Assembly (NCBI GenBank): GCA_019752595.1
Contig: JAIELV010000001.1
Span: 378,551-442,550 of the forward strand
DNA from: Patescibacteria group bacterium
GTDB taxonomy: Bacteria; Patescibacteriota; Minisyncoccia; Phycocordibacterales; Phycocordibacteraceae
Length of the DNA stretch: 64,000 nt
Direction of reading: 5' to 3'
Shown here: positions 20,719 to 63,924 of the stretch, piece by piece
Position numbering within the stretch: position 1 is the stretch's first letter
Layout of the letters: each line of letters begins with the position of its first letter
Notes under the pieces: model-generated
Seen by the model: only the letters and a program-made list of their open reading frames with translations
Told to the model about the DNA's origin: nothing
Database searches by the model: none
Translations under genes and position numbers: made by a program

Positions 20719-20722
20719 AGAG

Positions 20723-20809
20723 CGGAGAGGGAGGGATTCGAACCCTCGGTACAGTTTCCCATACGCCACATTTCGAGTGTGGTGCCTTCGACCACTCAGC
20801 CACCTCTCC
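20723..20809 (-). tRNA. tRNA-Ser (anticodon CGA)
   Basis: Manual fold: acceptor GGAGAGG/CCTCTCC, anticodon loop CUCGAAA, long variable arm, T-loop GGTTCGAAT. No CCA encoded. Confidence 0.9.
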
Positions 20810-20929
20810 TTGGATGCAACTTCGCGATTCTAGCATTTTTCAATCAAAATGCTATATTTCAAGCCACGGCTTCATGCAATGAAGCCGCTCGGCTCATAAA
20901 GAGCGCCTTCTGCGATAGCAGAAGGATCG

Positions 20930-20969
20930 GCCCGCCAAACGTGCAGCTCTGCTCACGTTTGAGTGGCCT
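20930..20969. repeat. 40-bp direct repeat, copy 1, containing the hairpin AAACGTG...CACGTTT
   Basis: Identical to 21041-21080. Confidence 0.85.
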
Positions 20970-21040
20970 TCTTGAAACAGTTTTGCTCACGCAAAACCTC
21001 GGCTTAGAAAAAGCCCTTATCTGCTAAAGCAGATAACTCA

Positions 21041-21080
21041 GCCCGCCAAACGTGCAGCTCTGCTCACGTTTGAGTGGCCT
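21041..21080. repeat. 40-bp direct repeat, copy 2
   Basis: Identical to 20930-20969. Confidence 0.85.
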
Positions 21081-21127
21081 CGCTCGAAGAAAATGAATTC
21101 GTACACGATTCATTTTCCTTCTCGCTC

Positions 21128-21199
21128 GGCCCCATCGTCTAACGGCTAGGACGCATCCCTTTCACGGATGAAATCGGAGTTCGATTCTCCGTGGGGTCA
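21128..21199 (+). tRNA. tRNA-Glu (anticodon TTC)
   Basis: Manual fold: acceptor GGCCCCA/TGGGGTC, anticodon loop CTTTCAC, T-arm CGGAG-TTCGATT-CTCCG. Confidence 0.88.
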
Positions 21200-56866: not shown

Positions 56867-56948
56867 ATTATACCACGTTTTCAACTATTTTGCAGCTCGC
56901 CTCGCGACTACACTTTGATTTTCTACTGCAGAGTACCGCAAAGAAAAT

Positions 56949-57281
56949 CTAGGCGGAAATTATCAGCACCGAACGCTTGATAGCAACAAACGCGTACCCC
57001 CACAAAATCGGGAGCCAAATCGGCATAAGCCCTAGAAGAGTTCTTGAGGTGAATGTTTCGACACCAGTTGAAACAAATAGTGATTCCCCTATCGTGAGCA
57101 CCACGAGACCAAACACAAATACTAGGAAATCTTTTTCTTCTTTTCTAATTAAAAAAGAAATAAGGATGATAAAGAGGTACGTTGTCGCCAAAAGGTAATC
57201 ATTTTTCACAATCGGAATTAACCCAATCATGATAAGAATTGGTATCGCGTTCAGAAATATGCTTCTGACTTTTTTATGCAT
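56949..57281 (-). CDS. small polytopic membrane protein, hypothetical
   Basis: 110 aa, 3 TM helices. Confidence 0.4.
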   Translation of the reverse strand: MHKKVRSIFLNAIPILIMIGLIPIVKNDYLLATTYLFIILISFLIRKEEKDFLVFVFGLVVLTIGESLFVSTGVETFTSRTLLGLMPIWLPILWGYAFVAIKRSVLIISA

Positions 57282-57297
57282 ACTGCCCGAAGGGTGC

Positions 57298-58314
57298 TTA
57301 CTGCCGAGAACACAAACTATTTTGATTTGTCATTTTTCCGTAAAAACCTGAGGCATTCGCAAGATACGCTAGCGGGCACGCTGCGAAATTTGTTTTTACG
57401 GGATATGAGGAAGCGTTAGATAGACCGCGGTTCGTTCGAAGATCAATGACGCCAAAGCCAAAAGAACCTTCAATTCTCCCCACGCGCCCGAGAAGTGTCC
57501 CACGCGCTATAAGTTCAAGTTTTTTGATAAGGCACGCATTCTCTCCCACATGCGGTTTCCCGAGACACACAGAATCTGTAACCATTTTGTATATCGAATT
57601 TGAAAGTTCTTTCACGTGCGTTACATACCCAATGACGTCCTTGCAGAGCGCGAAATAAATTGTGTTGTCTTCGGGATCCGCGGAGAGCCCGTATTCCTGA
57701 GTGATGTGCGTAATGTACACATCACCTGGTGCGACAATATCGTACTTATTCAATTCCCCACTTCCGACAACTTTCACAACCGCATAGTCAGGCACACCAC
57801 TTGCGTTCATGCTTCCCGTTGGAGCTATAGAAGTGACAATTGAAAGTTGAACGGGATCAATCGTAAACGTTTTTCCTTCGCAGGACGGAAGCGTAGCGCG
57901 TTCATTCTCGCTTGGAATTTCAGGAGTGATCCTTTCAGAAGCCAGAAAACCAGGGTCGTAGGGCTTTGAAACAATAACGTCGGGCTTCGGTTCACTCTGA
58001 GGCGTCGTGGGCTGTGCCGATTCCGTTTGGTTTCCTAAAGCATTTGTCTTTGGTGGTACGGGTTTAGATTCTGGCGCTGACGAAGGTTTCGAAACAATAG
58101 GCGTTGCAGGTATCTCGTCCGACACCACGTCACTTTGCGCTTGCTCAACCACGGGCAACATCTGTACCTCATTCTCAGTCGAACTTCCAGGATTCATGTA
58201 TAACCCGTAGGCAAACGCACCAACAAGAAATATTCCTACGACACTTAATACGAGCGTTTGAGGTTTTATACCTAGCATATGGTTAATATGGTACCGCACT
58301 AAATGTACGCGCAT
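57298..58314 (-). CDS. membrane-anchored extracytoplasmic protein (TM, Pro/Ser-rich linker, C-terminal domain)
   Basis: N-terminal TM helix, PxxP-rich low-complexity linker, Cys-containing C-terminal domain. Confidence 0.5.
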   Translation of the reverse strand: MRVHLVRYHINHMLGIKPQTLVLSVVGIFLVGAFAYGLYMNPGSSTENEVQMLPVVEQAQSDVVSDEIPATPIVSKPSSAPESKPVPPKTNALGNQTESAQPTTPQSEPKPDVIVSKPYDPGFLASERITPEIPSENERATLPSCEGKTFTIDPVQLSIVTSIAPTGSMNASGVPDYAVVKVVGSGELNKYDIVAPGDVYITHITQEYGLSADPEDNTIYFALCKDVIGYVTHVKELSNSIYKMVTDSVCLGKPHVGENACLIKKLELIARGTLLGRVGRIEGSFGFGVIDLRTNRGLSNASSYPVKTNFAACPLAYLANASGFYGKMTNQNSLCSRQ

Positions 58315-58326
58315 GCCATACCTGGT

Positions 58327-59406
58327 CTATGGAGTGAACTTTTTTGTTCGGTACAAAGCTCCGCCGTTTACCTCGAGTGTTTTTTTCAGTTCCGCCGTCT
58401 TTAGTTTCACATCGTCAAACCCTATATTTTCAACATTCACGACGGTAATGACCACACTTCCGCCTTGAAGAAAAATGAGAGTGTCCGTATAGCCTGGAAA
58501 TTCGACCCCTTTAAATATGTCGTACATGTTCATATCGCCCACGAGATTAATAGTGTCTTCTCCGCCAGCCCCATCAAAAAACACACCTTTTCCAGTCCAA
58601 TACGAACGAGCAAGCGGGGTGTTGGCTGCGTACTTCGTTGTATCGGACGTATACGTGGAACCCGAACCAATACGAAATAATTTGGTAAGCCCGCTCACGC
58701 GGCCCGTCGCTACGTCAACAACTGCAATCTGGTAGTGTCCTTCTCTCAGTCGGACGACTGCCTCTGTACCCGCCTCAGTAATATATTTCTCCTCCAAGTA
58801 CCATTCAAATACTTTTGCATCTGCACGCGGAGAGGTTTCTGCGGTTATACGTGCTTCATGTATACCGTTTATGCGCCCCAATAAATCCTTGTGAATAACA
58901 AACATACGGTACTGTGGCGTCACCGCAGTGGGATCACGCACCTCAATGTGATATTGCAAACCGAAAGTAAGCGGACCTTCGTCGGGCGAGAGTGAAACTG
59001 AAAAAGCGCCAGCGGCAACCTTCTCTTCAAGAGAAGAACTTTGCGTTACTATCTCGCCCCCCCATGCGCACGTCCCTGCGCCTGCCGAAATCGCACACAC
59101 GTCGCGCGCGGATGCTTTGGTCACATTCGGAAACATCGCGACGACTTTCAATTCATAGCTCACCGTTAGGTCGCGTCTTTCGTTTGAAGTACCCGCATCA
59201 GTTTTTGGATCGTATGCAGTTGCGCCTGATACATCGGAAGCAGTAGGAACAACATCAACAACTGTTTCACTTTCAGATATAGGTTTAGTCTGCTTGATGT
59301 ATTGCGATGTAAAAAAGACGTACGCCAACCCTCCTAACATTCCAAGCGCTAACGCAACAATGGCTATTTTGACCATAGGATGCGTACAGTGTACGACAAT
59401 CTGCAC
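58327..59406 (-). CDS. membrane-anchored extracytoplasmic protein, hypothetical
   Basis: N-terminal TM helix (IAIVALALGMLGGLAYVFF) and a C-terminal beta-rich domain. Confidence 0.5.
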   Translation of the reverse strand: MQIVVHCTHPMVKIAIVALALGMLGGLAYVFFTSQYIKQTKPISESETVVDVVPTASDVSGATAYDPKTDAGTSNERRDLTVSYELKVVAMFPNVTKASARDVCAISAGAGTCAWGGEIVTQSSSLEEKVAAGAFSVSLSPDEGPLTFGLQYHIEVRDPTAVTPQYRMFVIHKDLLGRINGIHEARITAETSPRADAKVFEWYLEEKYITEAGTEAVVRLREGHYQIAVVDVATGRVSGLTKLFRIGSGSTYTSDTTKYAANTPLARSYWTGKGVFFDGAGGEDTINLVGDMNMYDIFKGVEFPGYTDTLIFLQGGSVVITVVNVENIGFDDVKLKTAELKKTLEVNGGALYRTKKFTP

Positions 59407-59410
59407 ATCA

Positions 59411-59588
59411 TTGCGGTGAAATTATATCCTTTGCGCGAACCCATTTCGAGCAGAACCCCTGACCTATCGCGCCTCGCGGACTCGGCGCTCCCCGCGCGAG
59501 GACGCGCGGGCGACCGAAGCCCTGCCGCTTCCTATGCATTTCTGTTTTGGCGGGGGAAGTGCATTGAAGAATTGGAATGGAGCGGCAG
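59411..59588. repeat. IR1-L: 178-bp inverted repeat, perfect reverse complement of 61554-61731
   Basis: Direct base-by-base comparison. GC-rich with internal hairpins (CCGCGCG-AGGA-CGCGCGG). Confidence 0.9.
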
Positions 59589-59689
59589 GGCTTCGGTCGA
59601 AATGCATTGTGCTTGCCCCTCCCTCCCAGTGCGCGCACATCAGTTTTGCCGTTTTTAGGAAAAATTATAAAACGGCAAAACTGACTCCC

Positions 59690-61249
59690 TTAAATGCTAC
59701 CGGAAAATCCAAGCGGAATTTCTTTCGCGAGACTTTCCAAATGTTCGGTCATAAATTGGTCTTTTTCATAATACGGGACAATTTTCCGAACCATTTCGTA
59801 CAAACTCTTTGTCTTGGAACTAAGTTGTTCTTTGCCACGAATTTCTGCAGCTTGACACGCGCACATCAATTCAAAGGCAATAATATATTTTGCGTTTTCA
59901 AAAATAGTTTTTGCTCGTCGCGCCGCGATTAGTCCCATAGAAACTATGTCTTGAAAATCCTCGGTTGAGGTTAGTGTTTGAATGGAAAGCGGAACACAAA
60001 GCGACCTATTCTCGGCAGTAAGAGAGGTTGCCATAAATTGACCTCCCATCAAACCAAACTGCAATCCGGGTACAGGAGAAAGAAAAGGCGGCAATCCATT
60101 GCTGTGATGGCTGTCCAAAAATCTATCTATTCGTCTGTCGGACAAATTTGAAAGCGTCGTGAGACTTATGGCGAGTTGGTCCATCGCCATCGCAATATAT
60201 TGGCCGTGAAAATGCCCATTGTGAAAGACATCTTGCTCGCTTTCTATAACTAATGGATTATCGTTAGAAGAATTTAATTCGTCCTCTACTACCTGACTAA
60301 TAACTTCTAGATTGTCGCGAATTGGTCCGATAATTTGCGGAGTGCATCGCAAAGAATATGCGTCTTCAATTTGAATGGGATTTCCTTGCGGATTATCCTT
60401 TCTATTTTTTTGTAATGTACTGCCGACCGAATCTTCATCGGCAATCATTTTACTATCAGCGAGAATGGCAAAAATATTTTCTGCTGTGATTTGCTGCCCT
60501 TTGTGAGGTTTAAGAGCGTGGACTCTGGGGTCAAATGGTTTTCGAGTTGCTTTCAGTGTTTCAAGTGTAATAGCCGAGACGACATCGTAAGTCGCGAGCA
60601 AACTTTTTACTTCGTCAATCAAAACAGAAGCCATACCAACCATCGCTGAAGTTCCGTTTATCATTGCCAAACCCTCTTTAAAACCAAGTGTCATTGGCTC
60701 AATTTTTGCCGCCTTTAGTGCGTCCGCACCCGATATAATTTTTCCATCAAATTTTGCTTTCCATTGGCCGATTCCGACCAACGCAATGCAAGCAAGCGGC
60801 GCAAGGTCGCCACTTGCGCCCAACGAACCCTTTTCAGGAATACAAGGAATAATCCCTGCGTTGAAAATCGCAATAAACTTTCTGAAATTTTCTTCGGAAA
60901 TTGCAGAATTACCTCTCGCTAAAGAGTGTATGCGAGCGAGCATAGTTGCCCGCACGATTTCATCGGGCAGAAAATTTCCTACATTGGTCGCGACACCATT
61001 GAGCAAATTTACTTGCAACTCACCGAGTTTGTTTTCCGGAATAAGCCAACTCACAAAACCTCCCATTCCGGTATTTACTCCGTAAATAGTTCTTCCGTCT
61101 TTTACAAGTTTTTCGAGTGTTTGGCGGCACTTGGCAACTCGCTCGAAAACCTCATTATCAAAATCAATAGTCGCCTTTGGATTACGCGCAACCGCAACAA
61201 GCCCTGCGAGGGTAAGTTGTTCCGAATCCATTTTAAATACGGTTTCCAT
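59690..61249 (-). CDS. histidine/aromatic amino-acid ammonia-lyase (MIO-dependent HAL/PAL/TAL family)
   Basis: 519 aa. GSLGASGDLAPLA carries the Ala-Ser-Gly MIO-forming triad. Hairpin terminator at 59641-59685. Confidence 0.85.
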   Translation of the reverse strand: METVFKMDSEQLTLAGLVAVARNPKATIDFDNEVFERVAKCRQTLEKLVKDGRTIYGVNTGMGGFVSWLIPENKLGELQVNLLNGVATNVGNFLPDEIVRATMLARIHSLARGNSAISEENFRKFIAIFNAGIIPCIPEKGSLGASGDLAPLACIALVGIGQWKAKFDGKIISGADALKAAKIEPMTLGFKEGLAMINGTSAMVGMASVLIDEVKSLLATYDVVSAITLETLKATRKPFDPRVHALKPHKGQQITAENIFAILADSKMIADEDSVGSTLQKNRKDNPQGNPIQIEDAYSLRCTPQIIGPIRDNLEVISQVVEDELNSSNDNPLVIESEQDVFHNGHFHGQYIAMAMDQLAISLTTLSNLSDRRIDRFLDSHHSNGLPPFLSPVPGLQFGLMGGQFMATSLTAENRSLCVPLSIQTLTSTEDFQDIVSMGLIAARRAKTIFENAKYIIAFELMCACQAAEIRGKEQLSSKTKSLYEMVRKIVPYYEKDQFMTEHLESLAKEIPLGFSGSI

Positions 61250-61254
61250 AGGTC

Positions 61255-61476
61255 TTAGTTGATAAAGTAGTTTAAAGGTTTTTTATAGATTTTCGCCAAC
61301 TCTGCTAATTCTACCGCGTCCACACTACGCTCGCCTCGTTCTATTTTGGACAAGTACGCCTGTGGCTTCTTCAGCTTTTTACCTGCCTCCACCTGCGTCA
61401 AATTTGCCGCTAGGCGAGCGGAACGGAGTTTTGCTGCAAATTTTCTATATTGAGCCGAATATTTCTTCCTCGTCAT
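61255..61476 (-). CDS. XRE-family helix-turn-helix transcriptional regulator
   Basis: 74 aa. LTQVEAGKKLKKPQAYLSKIERGER HTH_3 signature. The longer ORF to 61608 runs into IR1-R and was not used. Confidence 0.75.
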   Translation of the reverse strand: MTRKKYSAQYRKFAAKLRSARLAANLTQVEAGKKLKKPQAYLSKIERGERSVDAVELAELAKIYKKPLNYFIN

Positions 61477-61553
61477 TATTTTAACATGGTATAACCCATT
61501 GTGGAATATACCAGTTTGGTATATTCTTTTGTGAGAGCGGAACGCCCTCACTT

Positions 61554-61731
61554 CTGCCGCTCCATTCCAATTCTTCAATGCACTTCCCCCGCCAAAACAG
61601 AAATGCATAGGAAGCGGCAGGGCTTCGGTCGCCCGCGCGTCCTCGCGCGGGGAGCGCCGAGTCCGCGAGGCGCGATAGGTCAGGGGTTCTGCTCGAAATG
61701 GGTTCGCGCAAAGGATATAATTTCACCGCAA
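61554..61731. repeat. IR1-R: 178-bp inverted repeat (partner of 59411-59588)
   Basis: Perfect reverse complement of IR1-L. Overlaps IR2-L by about 6 bp. Confidence 0.9.
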
Positions 61732-61857
61732 CTTGATACTTCCATCGGATTTAATTCCGAATCTGCGCCCGAGGCGGGCGGGCGCAGATGCATTTTCGCG
61801 CGCAGACGCGCGGTATTCTCTGACGGCGGGGAGAATCCGAAATGCGGGGATTTGCCC
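61726..61857. repeat. IR2-L: about 132-bp inverted repeat, perfect reverse complement of 63272-63405
   Basis: Direct comparison. Contains internal hairpins (TCTGCGCCCG-AGGC-GGGCGGGCGCAGA). Confidence 0.9.
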
Positions 61858-61879
61858 TTGTTTCAATCCAAAACCACTT

Positions 61880-63532
61880 ATGGATAACAAACCAAAATAT
61901 TTTCTATACGCGCGTAAGTCGTCAGAGGATGATGACCGCCAAGTGATGAGCATTGAGGCGCAACTGTTTGAACTGCGTGAATACGCGTGTAAAGAAAACC
62001 TTGAAATTCTTGAGGAATTTCAAGAGTCGAAAAGCGCAAAGACACCCGGCCGTGATATTTTCGGCCTCCTCATGGCGAAAATTGAGCGTATGGACGGCGT
62101 AGGCATACTCGCGTGGCATCCCGATAGGTTGGCGCGTAATAGCGTGGACGGAGGCAGAGTTATTTATGCCGTAGACACGCGCAAACTGGTGTCTATGCGC
62201 TTTCCGACATTTTGGTTTGAACCCACCCCGCAGGGGCTGTTTATGTTGCAAGTGGCGTTCGGCCAATCGAAATATTATTCCGATAATTTGAGTGAGAATA
62301 TCAAACGGGGTATCCGCCAAAAATTGCGACGAGGCGAGTGGTTGAACTGCGCTCCCTTTGGCTATCAGAATAATTTGCGTATCAGGAATATCGAACCGCA
62401 CCTAACCGAAGCGCGTATCGTGAAATTAGCGTACGAAGAATACGCCAAAGGGTCGCACACTCTCGTTTCGCTCGCGCAATTTTTGGCGGAGCTGGGCGTA
62501 CTTACGAAAAACCGAACGCCACTTGCCAAAGTTTCCATCAAACGGCTTCTAACGCACCGCGTCTATATCGGCTTTGTGAAGCACGCAGGCGAATGGTTTG
62601 ACGGAAACTTTGAGCCAATTCTTTCACCGCAATTATTTGAAGCCGTACAGAAAATCGTCGTGAGCAAGGAACGGCCGCGCAAAAGGAAAATCAAGCACGA
62701 TTTTCCTTTTACCGGACTTTTTCGATGTGGCGAGTGCGGAAGCATGATTAGCGCACAATGGGCAACTGGAAAATCCGGCGGTCGCTACCGCTATTATCGG
62801 TGTTCGAAAAAGCGCGGCCGTTGCTCTCAACCGTATGTGCAGGAAAGTGAGTTAGCGGACAAAATCACGGCACGGCTTCAAACAATCTCACTCCCCGATA
62901 GGTATACCGGCTGGATGCTGAACAAAGTGGACGAATGGGAGCGCGAAGAAACCGCCTCAACGGGGAGCGAGGTTCAAAATCTTTCCGAGCAAATCAAAGC
63001 GAACGAGGCACGCATGGAGAAACTCGTTTCTGCGTACTTAGATAACGATGTACCGAAAGAAATGTACTTGAAGCGAAAAGACGCGCTCATGCGTGTCCTC
63101 GCCGCTTTGAAAGTCGAAAAGAAAAATTTTGAACGCGGAAGAAAGAATTGGGTCGAACCCCTGCAGAAGTGGATTTTGGATATGAAACAAGCCGATTTTT
63201 TGTCCTCATCCAGCAATTTCGGAGAAATTGCCTCCTTCGTCAAAAAAGTCGGAACGAACCCTATGGTTCGTGGCAAATCCCCGCATTTCGGATTCTCCCC
63301 GCCGTCAGAGAATACCGCGCGTCTGCGCGCGAAAATGCATCTGCGCCCGCCCGCCTCGGGCGCAGATTCGGAATTAAATCCGATGGAAGTATCAAGTTGC
63401 GGAGACGGCGAGATTCGAACTCGCGGAGGTTTGACCCTCACTCGCTTTCCAAGCGAGCGCACTAGACCACTATGCGACGTCTCCGTTGCCTTCTTGTATA
63501 CCATATATGTAACCTCCCTACAGCTTCCGTAG
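61880..63532 (+). CDS. large serine recombinase (resolvase domain, recombinase domain, zinc ribbon)
   Basis: YARKSSEDDDRQVMSIEAQ catalytic Ser motif near the N-terminus and a CGECG...YYRC zinc-ribbon. The C-terminal reading frame continues through IR2-R and the antisense of tRNA-Ser, so the true stop is uncertain. Confidence 0.8.
   Translation: MDNKPKYFLYARKSSEDDDRQVMSIEAQLFELREYACKENLEILEEFQESKSAKTPGRDIFGLLMAKIERMDGVGILAWHPDRLARNSVDGGRVIYAVDTRKLVSMRFPTFWFEPTPQGLFMLQVAFGQSKYYSDNLSENIKRGIRQKLRRGEWLNCAPFGYQNNLRIRNIEPHLTEARIVKLAYEEYAKGSHTLVSLAQFLAELGVLTKNRTPLAKVSIKRLLTHRVYIGFVKHAGEWFDGNFEPILSPQLFEAVQKIVVSKERPRKRKIKHDFPFTGLFRCGECGSMISAQWATGKSGGRYRYYRCSKKRGRCSQPYVQESELADKITARLQTISLPDRYTGWMLNKVDEWEREETASTGSEVQNLSEQIKANEARMEKLVSAYLDNDVPKEMYLKRKDALMRVLAALKVEKKNFERGRKNWVEPLQKWILDMKQADFLSSSSNFGEIASFVKKVGTNPMVRGKSPHFGFSPPSENTARLRAKMHLRPPASGADSELNPMEVSSCGDGEIRTRGGLTLTRFPSERTRPLCDVSVAFLYTIYVTSLQLP
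63272..63405. repeat. IR2-R: inverted repeat (partner of 61726-61857)
   Basis: Perfect reverse complement of IR2-L. Abuts the 3' end of tRNA-Ser(GGA). Confidence 0.9.
63400..63484 (-). tRNA. tRNA-Ser (anticodon GGA)
   Basis: Manual fold: GGAGACG acceptor, anticodon loop TTGGAAA, long variable arm, T-arm GCGAGTTCGAATCTCGC. No CCA encoded. Confidence 0.85.
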
Positions 63533-63597: not shown

Positions 63598-63924
63598 TCA
63601 CCAGCTACCGCTTGCACCCCCGCCACCCGAAGAACCACCTCCGAACCCGCCGAAACTTCCTCCACTCGAACCACCCCATGTACTTCCCCCTGTCCACCAC
63701 GGCGGAGTCGAACCTGAAGAGCGCGCTTCACGGTATGCGCTTGAAACCGCGAAATCAACAATCAGCCCGATAACAATCAGCGGGATCGCGCTTATCAAAG
63801 CCACGCTTACACCTGCAAAAAGTGCAACCACACCTGCTCCTACTGCACCAAAAACACCTCCCAACCACCAGTCCTTTGTACGCGACATAATCGACACAAC
63901 CCATGCGCCGACAAAGAAAATCAT
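63598..63924 (-). CDS. membrane protein with a Gly/Ser-rich C-terminal tail, hypothetical
   Basis: 2-3 TM helices followed by GGSSGGSFGGFGGGSSGGGG. Confidence 0.4.
   Translation of the reverse strand: MIFFVGAWVVSIMSRTKDWWLGGVFGAVGAGVVALFAGVSVALISAIPLIVIGLIVDFAVSSAYREARSSGSTPPWWTGGSTWGGSSGGSFGGFGGGSSGGGGASGSW

Follow-up and report, generated by a model that had tools for sequence, protein, structure and literature searches.

An AdmH/EncP-type phenylalanine aminomutase/ammonia-lyase gene in an inverted-repeat-bounded cassette beside a tRNA-anchored serine recombinase of Patescibacteria

AdmH, the phenylalanine aminomutase of Pantoea agglomerans (PaPAM, 3UNV, EC 5.4.3.11), EncP of Streptomyces maritimus, which makes cinnamate for enterocin, and the histidine ammonia-lyase (HAL) HutH (PpHAL, 1GKM/1B8F) are the described enzymes with which we compare the product of a gene in a 64,000-nucleotide stretch of DNA from a Patescibacteria group bacterium (hereafter the window). 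The gene is carried in a cassette bounded by inverted repeats (IRs), next to a second such cassette that encodes a large serine recombinase and ends at a tRNA gene. Among solved structures AdmH comes closest (597 bits, 55% identity along the whole length). The two enzymes are alike in the region of the triad that forms the 4-methylideneimidazole-5-one (MIO) electrophile, in the catalytic Tyr and in the Tyr-x-x-Arg carboxylate clamp, and both have Val at the position of HAL His83, Glu at that of Gln277 and Phe-Gln-Asp-Ile at that of Glu414. Unlike AdmH, the window enzyme has Gly85, belongs to a separate clade and has no andrimid-type nonribosomal peptide synthetase (NRPS)/polyketide synthase (PKS) or adenylation partner. 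EncP, which we compared by description, offers the best precedent for cinnamate formation by a stand-alone enzyme; it is a physiological lyase that has the same '(S)-PAM' (phenylalanine aminomutase) active-site architecture and does both reactions (PMC6413883, PMC5651878). EncP is encoded in a polyketide cluster, whereas the window gene stands alone behind an XRE-family regulator. With HutH the window enzyme has its fold, the MIO cofactor and five catalytic residues (Tyr, Asn, Tyr, Arg and Phe) in common, but it is without His83 and Glu414, is only 36% identical to HutH, scores below the HAL cut-offs and has no hut context in view.

The cassettes have described counterparts of their own. In the staphylococcal cassette chromosome (SCC) elements of staphylococci and enterococci a large serine recombinase serves tandem, varied accessory cargo at one anchor, a plan that the window resembles. 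Against the SCC recombinase models the window recombinase scores 82.6 for CcrB (cut-off 900), 59.2 for CcrC (900) and 55.5 for CcrA (700), and from the CcrB value it is therefore not a Ccr. Unlike SCC, the window anchor is the 3' end of a tRNA gene and not rlmH, and the cassettes are bounded by long (130–290 bp), near-perfect IRs and usually led by an XRE gene, with the recombinase in a repeat-bounded, invertible cassette of its own. Shufflons and other multiple-inversion systems (Rci of R64; Gin/Pin/Min; PinQ) also have segments split by one alternating site and the recombinase beside them, with both orientations observed, in the present system for the recombinase cassette between related loci. 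Shufflons use a tyrosine recombinase and sites of ~19 bp to shuffle the 3' ends of one gene, whereas the window-type segments are complete, self-regulated operons with unrelated cargo, long repeats and a large serine recombinase. Tycheposons of Prochlorococcus and integrons are likewise cargo platforms for niche adaptation in streamlined genomes, tRNA-anchored (tycheposons) or recombinase-served (integrons) and sometimes tandem. Tycheposons have tyrosine recombinases and flanking partial-tRNA direct repeats (bioRxiv 10.1101/2020.12.28.424599); the window recombinase is instead of the serine type, its repeats are inverted and they overlap the tRNA by only about 1–7 nt. Integrons combine IntI, attC sites and promoterless cassettes in one orientation, and neither they nor tycheposons have long IRs or XRE-led cassettes. 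By the features that define them (Ccr cut-offs, recombinase class, repeat type and cassette structure), the vehicle in the window falls outside SCC, shufflons and tycheposons/integrons alike.

From the comparisons below we conclude that the window probably holds an intact AdmH/EncP-type enzyme as swappable cargo of one cassette in a Patescibacteria-wide system of IR-bounded, tRNA-adjacent cassettes served by a recombinase. A broader proposal, which we advance tentatively and at somewhat less than even chances, is that the system is a previously undescribed, phylum-wide platform in which a recombinase in its own invertible cassette at a tRNA 3' end serves arrays of XRE-led cargo cassettes separated by alternating composite sites. 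No published description of such a cassette system was found in the searchable literature, which omits most subscription journals.

Identity of the enzyme and its relatives

The open reading frame (ORF) at 59690–61249 is intact and encodes an MIO enzyme with the Ala-Ser-Gly triad, as a first-pass annotation of the window had recognized. The 519-aa product matches Pfam Lyase_aromatic (PF00221) over its full length (561.6 bits, E = 1.7e-168, profile positions 1–466 of 466), with the triad at Ala145-Ser146-Gly147 within GSLGASGDLAPL. The annotation had further placed the protein in a family whose HAL members normally head the hut pathway, and here the data point elsewhere. The enzyme scores under both curated HAL cut-offs (hutH TIGR01225, 494.1 bits against 539.15; PRK09367, NF006871, 511.2 against 524) and under that of the tyrosine aminomutase model (471 against 501), and it reaches 800.3 bits with TIGR04475, the equivalog model for D-beta-Phe-forming phenylalanine aminomutase (cut-off 800). 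Among sequences of known structure AdmH (3unv) was the best match, followed by SgTAM (347 bits, 40% identity) and PpHAL (298 bits).

The AdmH, SgTAM and PpHAL sequences were reconstructed from the search alignments and aligned with 132 others. In this alignment the catalytic set of the window enzyme is complete (Tyr56, Ala145-Ser146-Gly147, Asn198, Tyr298, Arg301 and Phe347), and His83, Gln277 and Glu414 of HAL (PpHAL numbering) are replaced by Val86, Glu295 and Gln433, the same residues as in AdmH. Both genuine HALs of the alignment keep His83 and Glu414. The window enzyme also is without the His that tyrosine-specific enzymes use at position 83. In a neighbour-joining tree of 136 sequences (100 bootstraps) the AdmH-type family, including the window enzyme, splits from SgTAM and HAL with 100% bootstrap support. 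AdmH groups with proteins from Photorhabdus, Nocardia and Salinispora in a 'natural-product' clade (98%), and the window enzyme lies in a clade of eight members (97%), two of them labelled Patescibacteria or Paceibacterota, that is sister to a large Chlamydiota-dominated environmental group. The tree and the substrate-residue comparison, both of which the first-pass annotation had called for, agree in separating the enzyme from HAL. On this sequence evidence we assign it to the AdmH/EncP type of phenylalanine aminomutase/ammonia-lyases, with '(S)-selective' phenylalanine 2,3-aminomutase architecture, and not to HAL. It is a new member of that family in a new host group and setting. Judged by a dN/dS of 0.069 against a 90%-identical homolog, the gene is intact and under strong purifying selection, and it is therefore functional.

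Given AdmH/EncP membership, the absence of hut genes is expected and urocanate is an unlikely product. The earlier statement that no Hut genes are visible held up when the 26 ORFs of at least 300 aa in the window (64 kb of a genome of ~0.83 Mb) were scanned with Pfam for Hut, NRPS and PKS domains: no urocanase, imidazolonepropionase or other Hut domain was found in them, nor any NRPS or PKS domain, with smaller ORFs partly scanned. What the scan did find (among others FtsA/FtsZ, proteins of type IV pili, giant surface proteins of SpaA type, MurJ, LepA, an aminoacyl-tRNA synthetase and an aldolase) is typical of the candidate phyla radiation (CPR) and, with the genome size, bears out the description of the genome as reduced. 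The LepA sequence agrees at 100% identity with a protein labelled 'Patescibacteria group bacterium' that is encoded on a contig of 831,433 nt.

Because EncP does both reactions with the shared architecture, phenylalanine is well supported as the substrate, and the product is not predictable from sequence. In the predicted reaction the enzyme would bind L-phenylalanine and eliminate ammonia via the MIO electrophile, after which either trans-cinnamate and NH4+ would be released or the amine would be re-added at C3 to give (S)-beta-phenylalanine. The likely products from L-phenylalanine are thus trans-cinnamate plus ammonia and/or (S)-beta-phenylalanine. Between the two, a net lyase output (cinnamate and ammonia) seems somewhat more likely than a supply of beta-phenylalanine, because no adenylating or NRPS partner occurs in any Patescibacteria context and the enzyme works alone in the phylum. 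In particular, neither the cassette, nor the window scans, nor the surroundings of the seven closest relatives contain an AMP-binding, NRPS, PKS, methyltransferase or transporter partner. Of the products that had been suggested from the first look at the sequence, a cinnamate-type acid is plausible, and urocanate is unlikely in an enzyme that is not a HAL.

The enzyme genes of the Patescibacteria clade occur in five unrelated settings (related loci are given by their L numbers):

L001/L002: pyruvate phosphate dikinase (PPDK), enzyme, enolase, 2-hydroxyacid dehydrogenase
L026: enolase, enzyme, 2-hydroxyacid dehydrogenase
L028, L110–L112: TrmB, then U32 peptidase, enzyme, EEP phosphatase
L004: PIN, enzyme
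Window and L005: XRE, enzyme

The XRE-lyase pair is kept in L005 at 84% nucleotide identity. At L001/L002 and L026 the enzyme gene lies between genes of lower glycolysis (PPDK, enolase) and a D-2-hydroxyacid dehydrogenase gene, with stops and starts that overlap or nearly abut; these are unexpected partners. Outside the phylum, the Photorhabdus, Nocardia and Salinispora relatives adjoin several AMP-binding genes. Chlamydiota-type loci (L006–L012, L014 and L022) hold a conserved cluster of the enzyme, an S-adenosylmethionine (SAM) methyltransferase and a major facilitator superfamily (MFS) transporter, often with an AMP-binding enzyme, and in L014 the enzyme and the SAM methyltransferase are apparently fused in an 804-aa ORF. 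The composition of this cluster suggests a small, exported, methylated phenylalanine-derived metabolite in Chlamydiota and similar host-associated bacteria. We found no literature that links an AdmH/EncP-type enzyme to CPR bacteria or Chlamydiae, in a search that had most subscription journals outside its reach.

Anatomy of the two cassettes and the island

The two cassettes and their anchor consist of the following features, in window coordinates:

59411..59588: left arm of IR1 (X-type cassette end), 178 nt, 100% complementary to 61554–61731
59421..59449, minus: promoter-like site at the outer end of the left IR1 arm, TCGAAA-17-TATAAT, 10/12 matches, directed outward toward a 359-aa gene; its function is predicted
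59608..59685, minus: post-cargo block with a 15-bp-stem hairpin (59641–59655/59669–59683), directly after the lyase stop
59690..61249, minus: lyase/aminomutase cargo gene, 519 aa, ATG start, MIO-dependent aromatic amino-acid aminomutase/ammonia-lyase of AdmH/EncP type
61255..61476, minus: leader gene, XRE-family helix-turn-helix regulator, 73 aa, HTH_3 E = 3.8e-12, start ATG 61476 by homology with L005
61478..61524, minus: XRE promoter-like site, TCCACA-16-TAAAAT with extended -10 TG, overlapping the palindrome TGGTATA-N13-TATACCA at 61487–61513
61554..61731: right arm of IR1, outer end GGGTTCGCGCAAAGG-TATAAT-TTCACCGCAA, which with the start of IR2 makes up the conserved junction site
61693..61721, plus: promoter-like site in the right IR1 arm, 10/12 matches, directed outward into IR2 and the recombinase gene
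61723..61856: left arm of IR2 (Y-type element), 134 nt, 99% complementary to 63272–63405, structured 5' leader of the recombinase gene
61880..63532, plus: large serine recombinase, ATG 61880, with Resolvase PF00239, Recombinase PF07508 and Zn_ribbon_recom PF13408, all above cut-offs
63272..63405: right arm of IR2, ending inside the last nucleotides of tRNA-Ser
63399..63484, minus: tRNA-Ser(GGA), the island anchor (ARAGORN; Rfam RF00005, 58.4 bits), with the same tRNA at the empty site in L029

A perfect match of 178 nt between the arms of IR1 is not plausibly of chance origin. The arms enclose the lyase gene and, as its sole companion, the HTH_3 gene, so that the IR-bounded cassette with only an XRE regulator beside the lyase is as it had been described. 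The XRE stop lies 5 nt from the lyase start codon. A 117-aa XRE ORF that runs into the repeat arm was considered and set aside as not being the gene, since comparison with the L005 homolog fixes the 73-aa start. The promoter and palindrome region upstream is partly conserved in L005, and the palindrome is likely an autoregulatory operator. The hairpin downstream of the cargo is a likely terminator of the cassette; window positions 59608–59676 are conserved in L031, L084 and L038 (79–84% identity) and the adjacent 59601–59639 in L060 (92%), with different cargo in all of them. Thus, the cassette would be a self-contained unit of 2.3 kb that consists of an XRE repressor gene with a promoter and operator of its own, the cargo gene, which starts 5 nt further on, and a hairpin terminator. 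We rejected inversion of the lyase cassette as an expression switch, as identical arms and a promoter within the cassette leave no simple on/off logic. The best promoter-like matches in the window are those at the outer ends of IR1, which face outward, and a -10-like box at the equivalent position is conserved across loci for both outward sites.

The recombinase has the N-terminal motif YARKSS, and residues 1–464 form its conserved part. Its ORF stays open across the right arm of IR2 and across the strand antisense to tRNA-Ser, and stops only beyond them (63272–63532, plus strand), such that the last ~86 residues are encoded by repeat and flank. The part of this tail beyond the repeat would change if the cassette flipped, and the spread of homolog lengths (483–693 aa, plus one truncated match of 432 aa) is consistent with this.

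Both cassettes lie within a larger island, the remaining features of which are:

56877..63395: genomic island of ~6.5 kb, between rnpB and tRNA-Ser(GGA), absent from the syntenic relative L029
56376–56864, minus: RNase P RNA (rnpB), left island border (RF00010, 95.4 bits, E = 1e-28, full-length, below the gathering score of 100)
56949..57281 (110 aa), 57298..58314 (338 aa) and 58327..59406 (359 aa), all minus: three island genes with no significant Pfam or NCBIfam family and weak sub-threshold matches only
Predicted empty junction: tRNA-Ser...CTCCGCAAC joined to the sequence left of 59411 or of 56877

L029, the LepA of which is 90% identical, is collinear with the window on both sides of the island. 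Window positions 63921 to 63396 correspond to L029 4588–5120 (the C-terminus of a TPM-phosphatase and tRNA-Ser) and 56876 to 49932 to L029 5554–12340; between these blocks lie 433 nt in L029 and 6519 nt in the window. The unit made up of the two cassettes has a short shared core (TTGCGGTGA/TTGCGGAGA) in direct orientation at either outer end (59411 and 63397). Lyase GC content at third codon positions (GC3), 0.37, is the lowest of 13 window genes sampled (0.43–0.57 in the others). The proposal of a recent acquisition stands insofar as the gene looks acquired, with the island absent in L029 and the lowest GC3; the source, on the other hand, most likely lies within the phylum and not outside it. 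The first-pass annotation had named nesting among vertically inherited enzymes of the same lineage as an outcome that would speak against acquisition. The enzyme does fall in a Patescibacteria-associated clade, but the members of that clade occupy at least five unrelated contexts, and from this combination of clade and scattered contexts transfer within the phylum is the most likely history. The description of the lyase as isolated cargo on a repeat-bounded, recombinase-associated cassette with no pathway partners nearby was accurate.

The three island genes follow directly on the outward promoter-like site in the left arm of IR1, inside the segment that is missing from L029. Their products have predicted features of membrane or secreted proteins, and the genes may be what is left of an older cassette. 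The rnpB gene was found by the sensitive Rfam mode and missed at the gathering threshold; it is preceded by a GTGGTATAAT promoter box, and both gene and promoter are conserved in L029 (5554–5800). Elsewhere in the window, a tRNA-Ser(CGA)/tRNA-Glu(TTC) pair at 20722–21199 appears unoccupied, and the same pair holds recombinase cassettes in L030, L033, L046, L048, L060 and L105.

Junction sites, inversion and cargo exchange across related loci

Homologs of the recombinase number more than 5,700 at E ≤ 1e-20. The best 120 of them, with 66–83% identity, belong to Kaiser-, Yanofsky-, Harrison-, Lloyd- and Yonathbacteria, Paceibacterota and other Patescibacteria lineages. A scan of viral contigs recovered no close relative of the recombinase there, and a phage origin is therefore unsupported. 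We surveyed 80 metagenomic recombinase loci from many JGI, ENA and NCBI assemblies. Where sequence was present on both sides, repeats bracket the recombinase in 63 of 69 loci, and they are at least 100 nt long in 40 of the 44 loci with full flanks (median 133 nt, 99.3% identity). A convergent tRNA gene lies within 300 nt in 41 of 54 assessable loci (35 Ser, 4 Leu, 1 Ile and 1 Glu). The recombinase is at most 500 nt from a contig end in 61 of the 80, as expected if assemblies break at the repeats. A further repeat-bounded cassette abuts in 11 of 32 loci, with five in a row in L099.

Every boundary between segments is one composite site of ~45–60 bp, made up of an X-type end (GGGTTCGCGCAAAGG, a -10-like box, then TCACCGCA) and a Y-type start (...GAAACTTC). 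Successive boundaries carry this site in alternating orientation, which by itself makes repeat-bounded segments of X and Y type follow one another in turn, as in a shufflon. The junction motif occurs in the window only at the two outer ends of IR1, with 0 occurrences expected by chance.

The Y element, represented in the window by the IR2 arm, is homologous across 18–23 loci with conserved ends. In an 18-locus alignment it folds into two GC-rich hairpins, which have UUCG-like loops and show compensatory substitutions; a GAAAC/GTTTC pairing that hardly varies closes the structure, and 9 of 17 predicted pairs are kept via changes on both sides. The element could be an RNA leader, a terminator of the tRNA transcript, a DNA cruciform or a scaffold for recombinase binding. 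Searches of the repeat elements against Rfam in gathering and sensitive modes gave no known RNA family. A single-sequence fold of the IR1–IR2 junction showed no significant gain in stability over shuffled sequence (z = -1.8), and the informative signal is the cross-locus covariation of IR2 only. The idea that the repeat end is a copy of the tRNA end that repairs the tRNA in either orientation (7–9 nt are shared with tRNA-Ser) was discarded, as the tRNA-Leu loci share only 1–4 nt.

A segment between inverted repeats with a site-specific recombinase next to it, the layout of invertible (phase-variable) DNA, is present in the window and throughout the family. Comparison of related loci supports inversion of the recombinase cassette. 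In two pairs of loci, L080 with L095 and L079 with L095, the sequences are 93–97% identical and the recombinase cassette points in opposite directions with respect to the segment next to it. The tRNA is upstream and co-oriented (flipped) in four loci, against 41 in the standard arrangement. Cargo exchange is supported by loci in which the same chassis holds different cargo. In particular, the window and L031 have homologous repeat arms (83–87% identity), the 70-nt terminator block and a stretch from XRE through the recombinase (80% over 2 kb) in common, with unrelated cargo; L084 has arms homologous to IR1 at about 82% and again other cargo. Homologs of the window XRE protein (44–77% identity) lead cassettes in L031, L038, L060, L076 and L084, and a small XRE gene leads at least 17 of ~27 cassettes overall. 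The cargo ranges over a type III restriction-modification pair, MFS transporters, surface proteins with PKD and beta-helix domains, DinB, NUDIX and methyltransferase proteins, an aminotransferase with dihydrodipicolinate synthase (DHDPS), homoserine dehydrogenase, phosphoribosylanthranilate isomerase (PRAI) with CYTH, a second recombinase and many proteins without known function.

We propose that the recombinase acts at the junction sites and inverts cassettes, presumably the cargo cassettes as well as its own, and that it may also excise or integrate them. The conserved chassis of repeat arms, XRE gene and terminator would let lineages swap cargo, by a route that could be either site-specific or homologous recombination. 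Candidate explanations for repeats that are long and near-perfect within a locus and diverged between loci are gene conversion during flipping or capture events that split a long palindromic site.

Two arrangements among the surveyed loci deserve separate mention. In L046 and L048 two diverged recombinase paralogs (68% nucleotide identity over 875 nt) lie on either side of tRNA-Ser(CGA)/tRNA-Glu(TTC), facing each other, and both tRNAs of one locus can thus each be occupied by a cassette. In L067 and L075 the whole recombinase cassette (~1.8 kb, 100% identical) stands at both contig ends, inverted, around a cargo segment of 2.6–3.7 kb; this could be either a true composite or the trace that a segment occurring in both orientations in a single population leaves in the assembly graph.

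Alternative readings and significance

Several observations weigh against our interpretation of the enzyme and its cassette. The score with TIGR04475 exceeds the cut-off by just 0.3 bits. Residue 85 is a clade-specific Gly where AdmH and most relatives have Ala, and the enzyme lies outside the 98%-supported AdmH/Photorhabdus/actinomycete clade, in one without a characterised member. No sequence rule separates mutase from lyase in the AdmH/EncP family, which makes the product a guess. As for the vehicle, inversion or movement of the lyase cassette itself is putative, and the recombination site and the part assigned to the recombinase are deduced from anatomy; long perfect repeats fit no known serine-recombinase mechanism. 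The IR1 sequence was not found in the flank of L005, of which 47 nt are available. The three island genes (56949–59406) lie outside any repeat-bounded cassette. Finally, the island could have been lost from L029 and not gained in the window, L029 being a relative with a LepA of only 90% identity.

That the enzyme is a genuine HutH, which would yield urocanate and ammonia with the rest of the hut pathway elsewhere or lost, we regard as very improbable. The fold and all MIO catalytic residues are indeed common to HAL, JGI labels several relatives 'histidine ammonia-lyase' and the hutH model still gives 494 bits; these points are outweighed by scores under both curated cut-offs, by a PpHAL score half that of AdmH, by the exchange of the imidazole-binding His83/Glu414 for Val86/Gln433 and of Gln277 for Glu295 as in AdmH, by the separation from HAL at 100% bootstrap and by the lack of any Hut domain in the ORFs scanned or of hut genes beside close relatives. 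A dedicated beta-phenylalanine aminomutase for a secondary metabolite, as AdmH is for andrimid, is better grounded and still unlikely. Such a role would fit the passed equivalog cut-off of TIGR04475, the AdmH signature residues, the AMP-binding genes near the Photorhabdus, Nocardia and Salinispora relatives and the methyltransferase, MFS transporter and AMP-binding enzyme of the Chlamydiota-type ones. It fits poorly with a genome of ~0.8 Mb in which no such partner accompanies the enzyme in the cassette or the window, or beside the seven closest relatives, and with a protein outside the AdmH clade; EncP, moreover, shows that the architecture can serve as a lyase.

The cassettes might instead be independent mobile elements with long terminal IRs that are excised and integrated in tandem at the tRNA by a recombinase acting in trans, in the manner of SCC, the different orientations being independent insertions. 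Tandem arrays that abut at one chromosomal anchor, the direct-orientation core TTGCGGTGA/TTGCGGAGA at 59411 and 63397, CcrB as the best curated match of the recombinase (far below cut-off) and homologous chassis with differing cargo would all suit this explanation. We consider it on balance somewhat unlikely, given that adjacent junction sites are inverted, which favours inversion by a serine recombinase, that L080, L079 and L095 differ only in the orientation of the recombinase cassette at 93–97% identity, and that no circular or empty-junction sequence was recovered. Independent mobility and inversion are, however, mutually compatible. There is very little chance that the repeats are assembly artefacts from fold-back or chimeric joins and the cassette not real. 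Repeat identities of 100% and 99% could raise this suspicion, as could L067 and L075, in which the inverted, identical cassettes at both contig ends may be a graph-walk artefact. The same geometry, though, is seen again in 63 of 69 loci, which come from many JGI, ENA and NCBI assemblies. The repeats of different loci are homologous and yet have diverged, with compensatory changes, the sequence inside the repeats is not palindromic, and the window appears to derive from one contig of 831 kb.

An invertible, exchangeable cassette with an AdmH/EncP-type enzyme as cargo thus remains our preferred account. It places this type of enzyme in ultra-small, fermentative, host-dependent bacteria without natural-product machinery, and draws attention to a large uncharacterised environmental clade (Chlamydiota, Aerophobetes, Halobacteriovoraceae and Patescibacteria) that annotation splits arbitrarily between 'HAL' and 'aminomutase'. 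To our knowledge, the gain and regulation of accessory genes in CPR bacteria are poorly understood. A conserved recombinase, a recognisable site, a tRNA anchor and modular XRE-led cassettes would offer a tractable mechanism, and such a system would account for the assembly breaks at these loci as well. In a phylum that has almost no genetic tools, the recombinase with its defined sites could be a candidate for one. If the proposal is correct, the platform combines features of shufflons with those of integrons and SCC, and minimal genomes could use it to flip, insulate and exchange accessory functions. A phenylalanine aminomutase/lyase would be one such function, making cinnamate, ammonia or beta-phenylalanine from scavenged phenylalanine.

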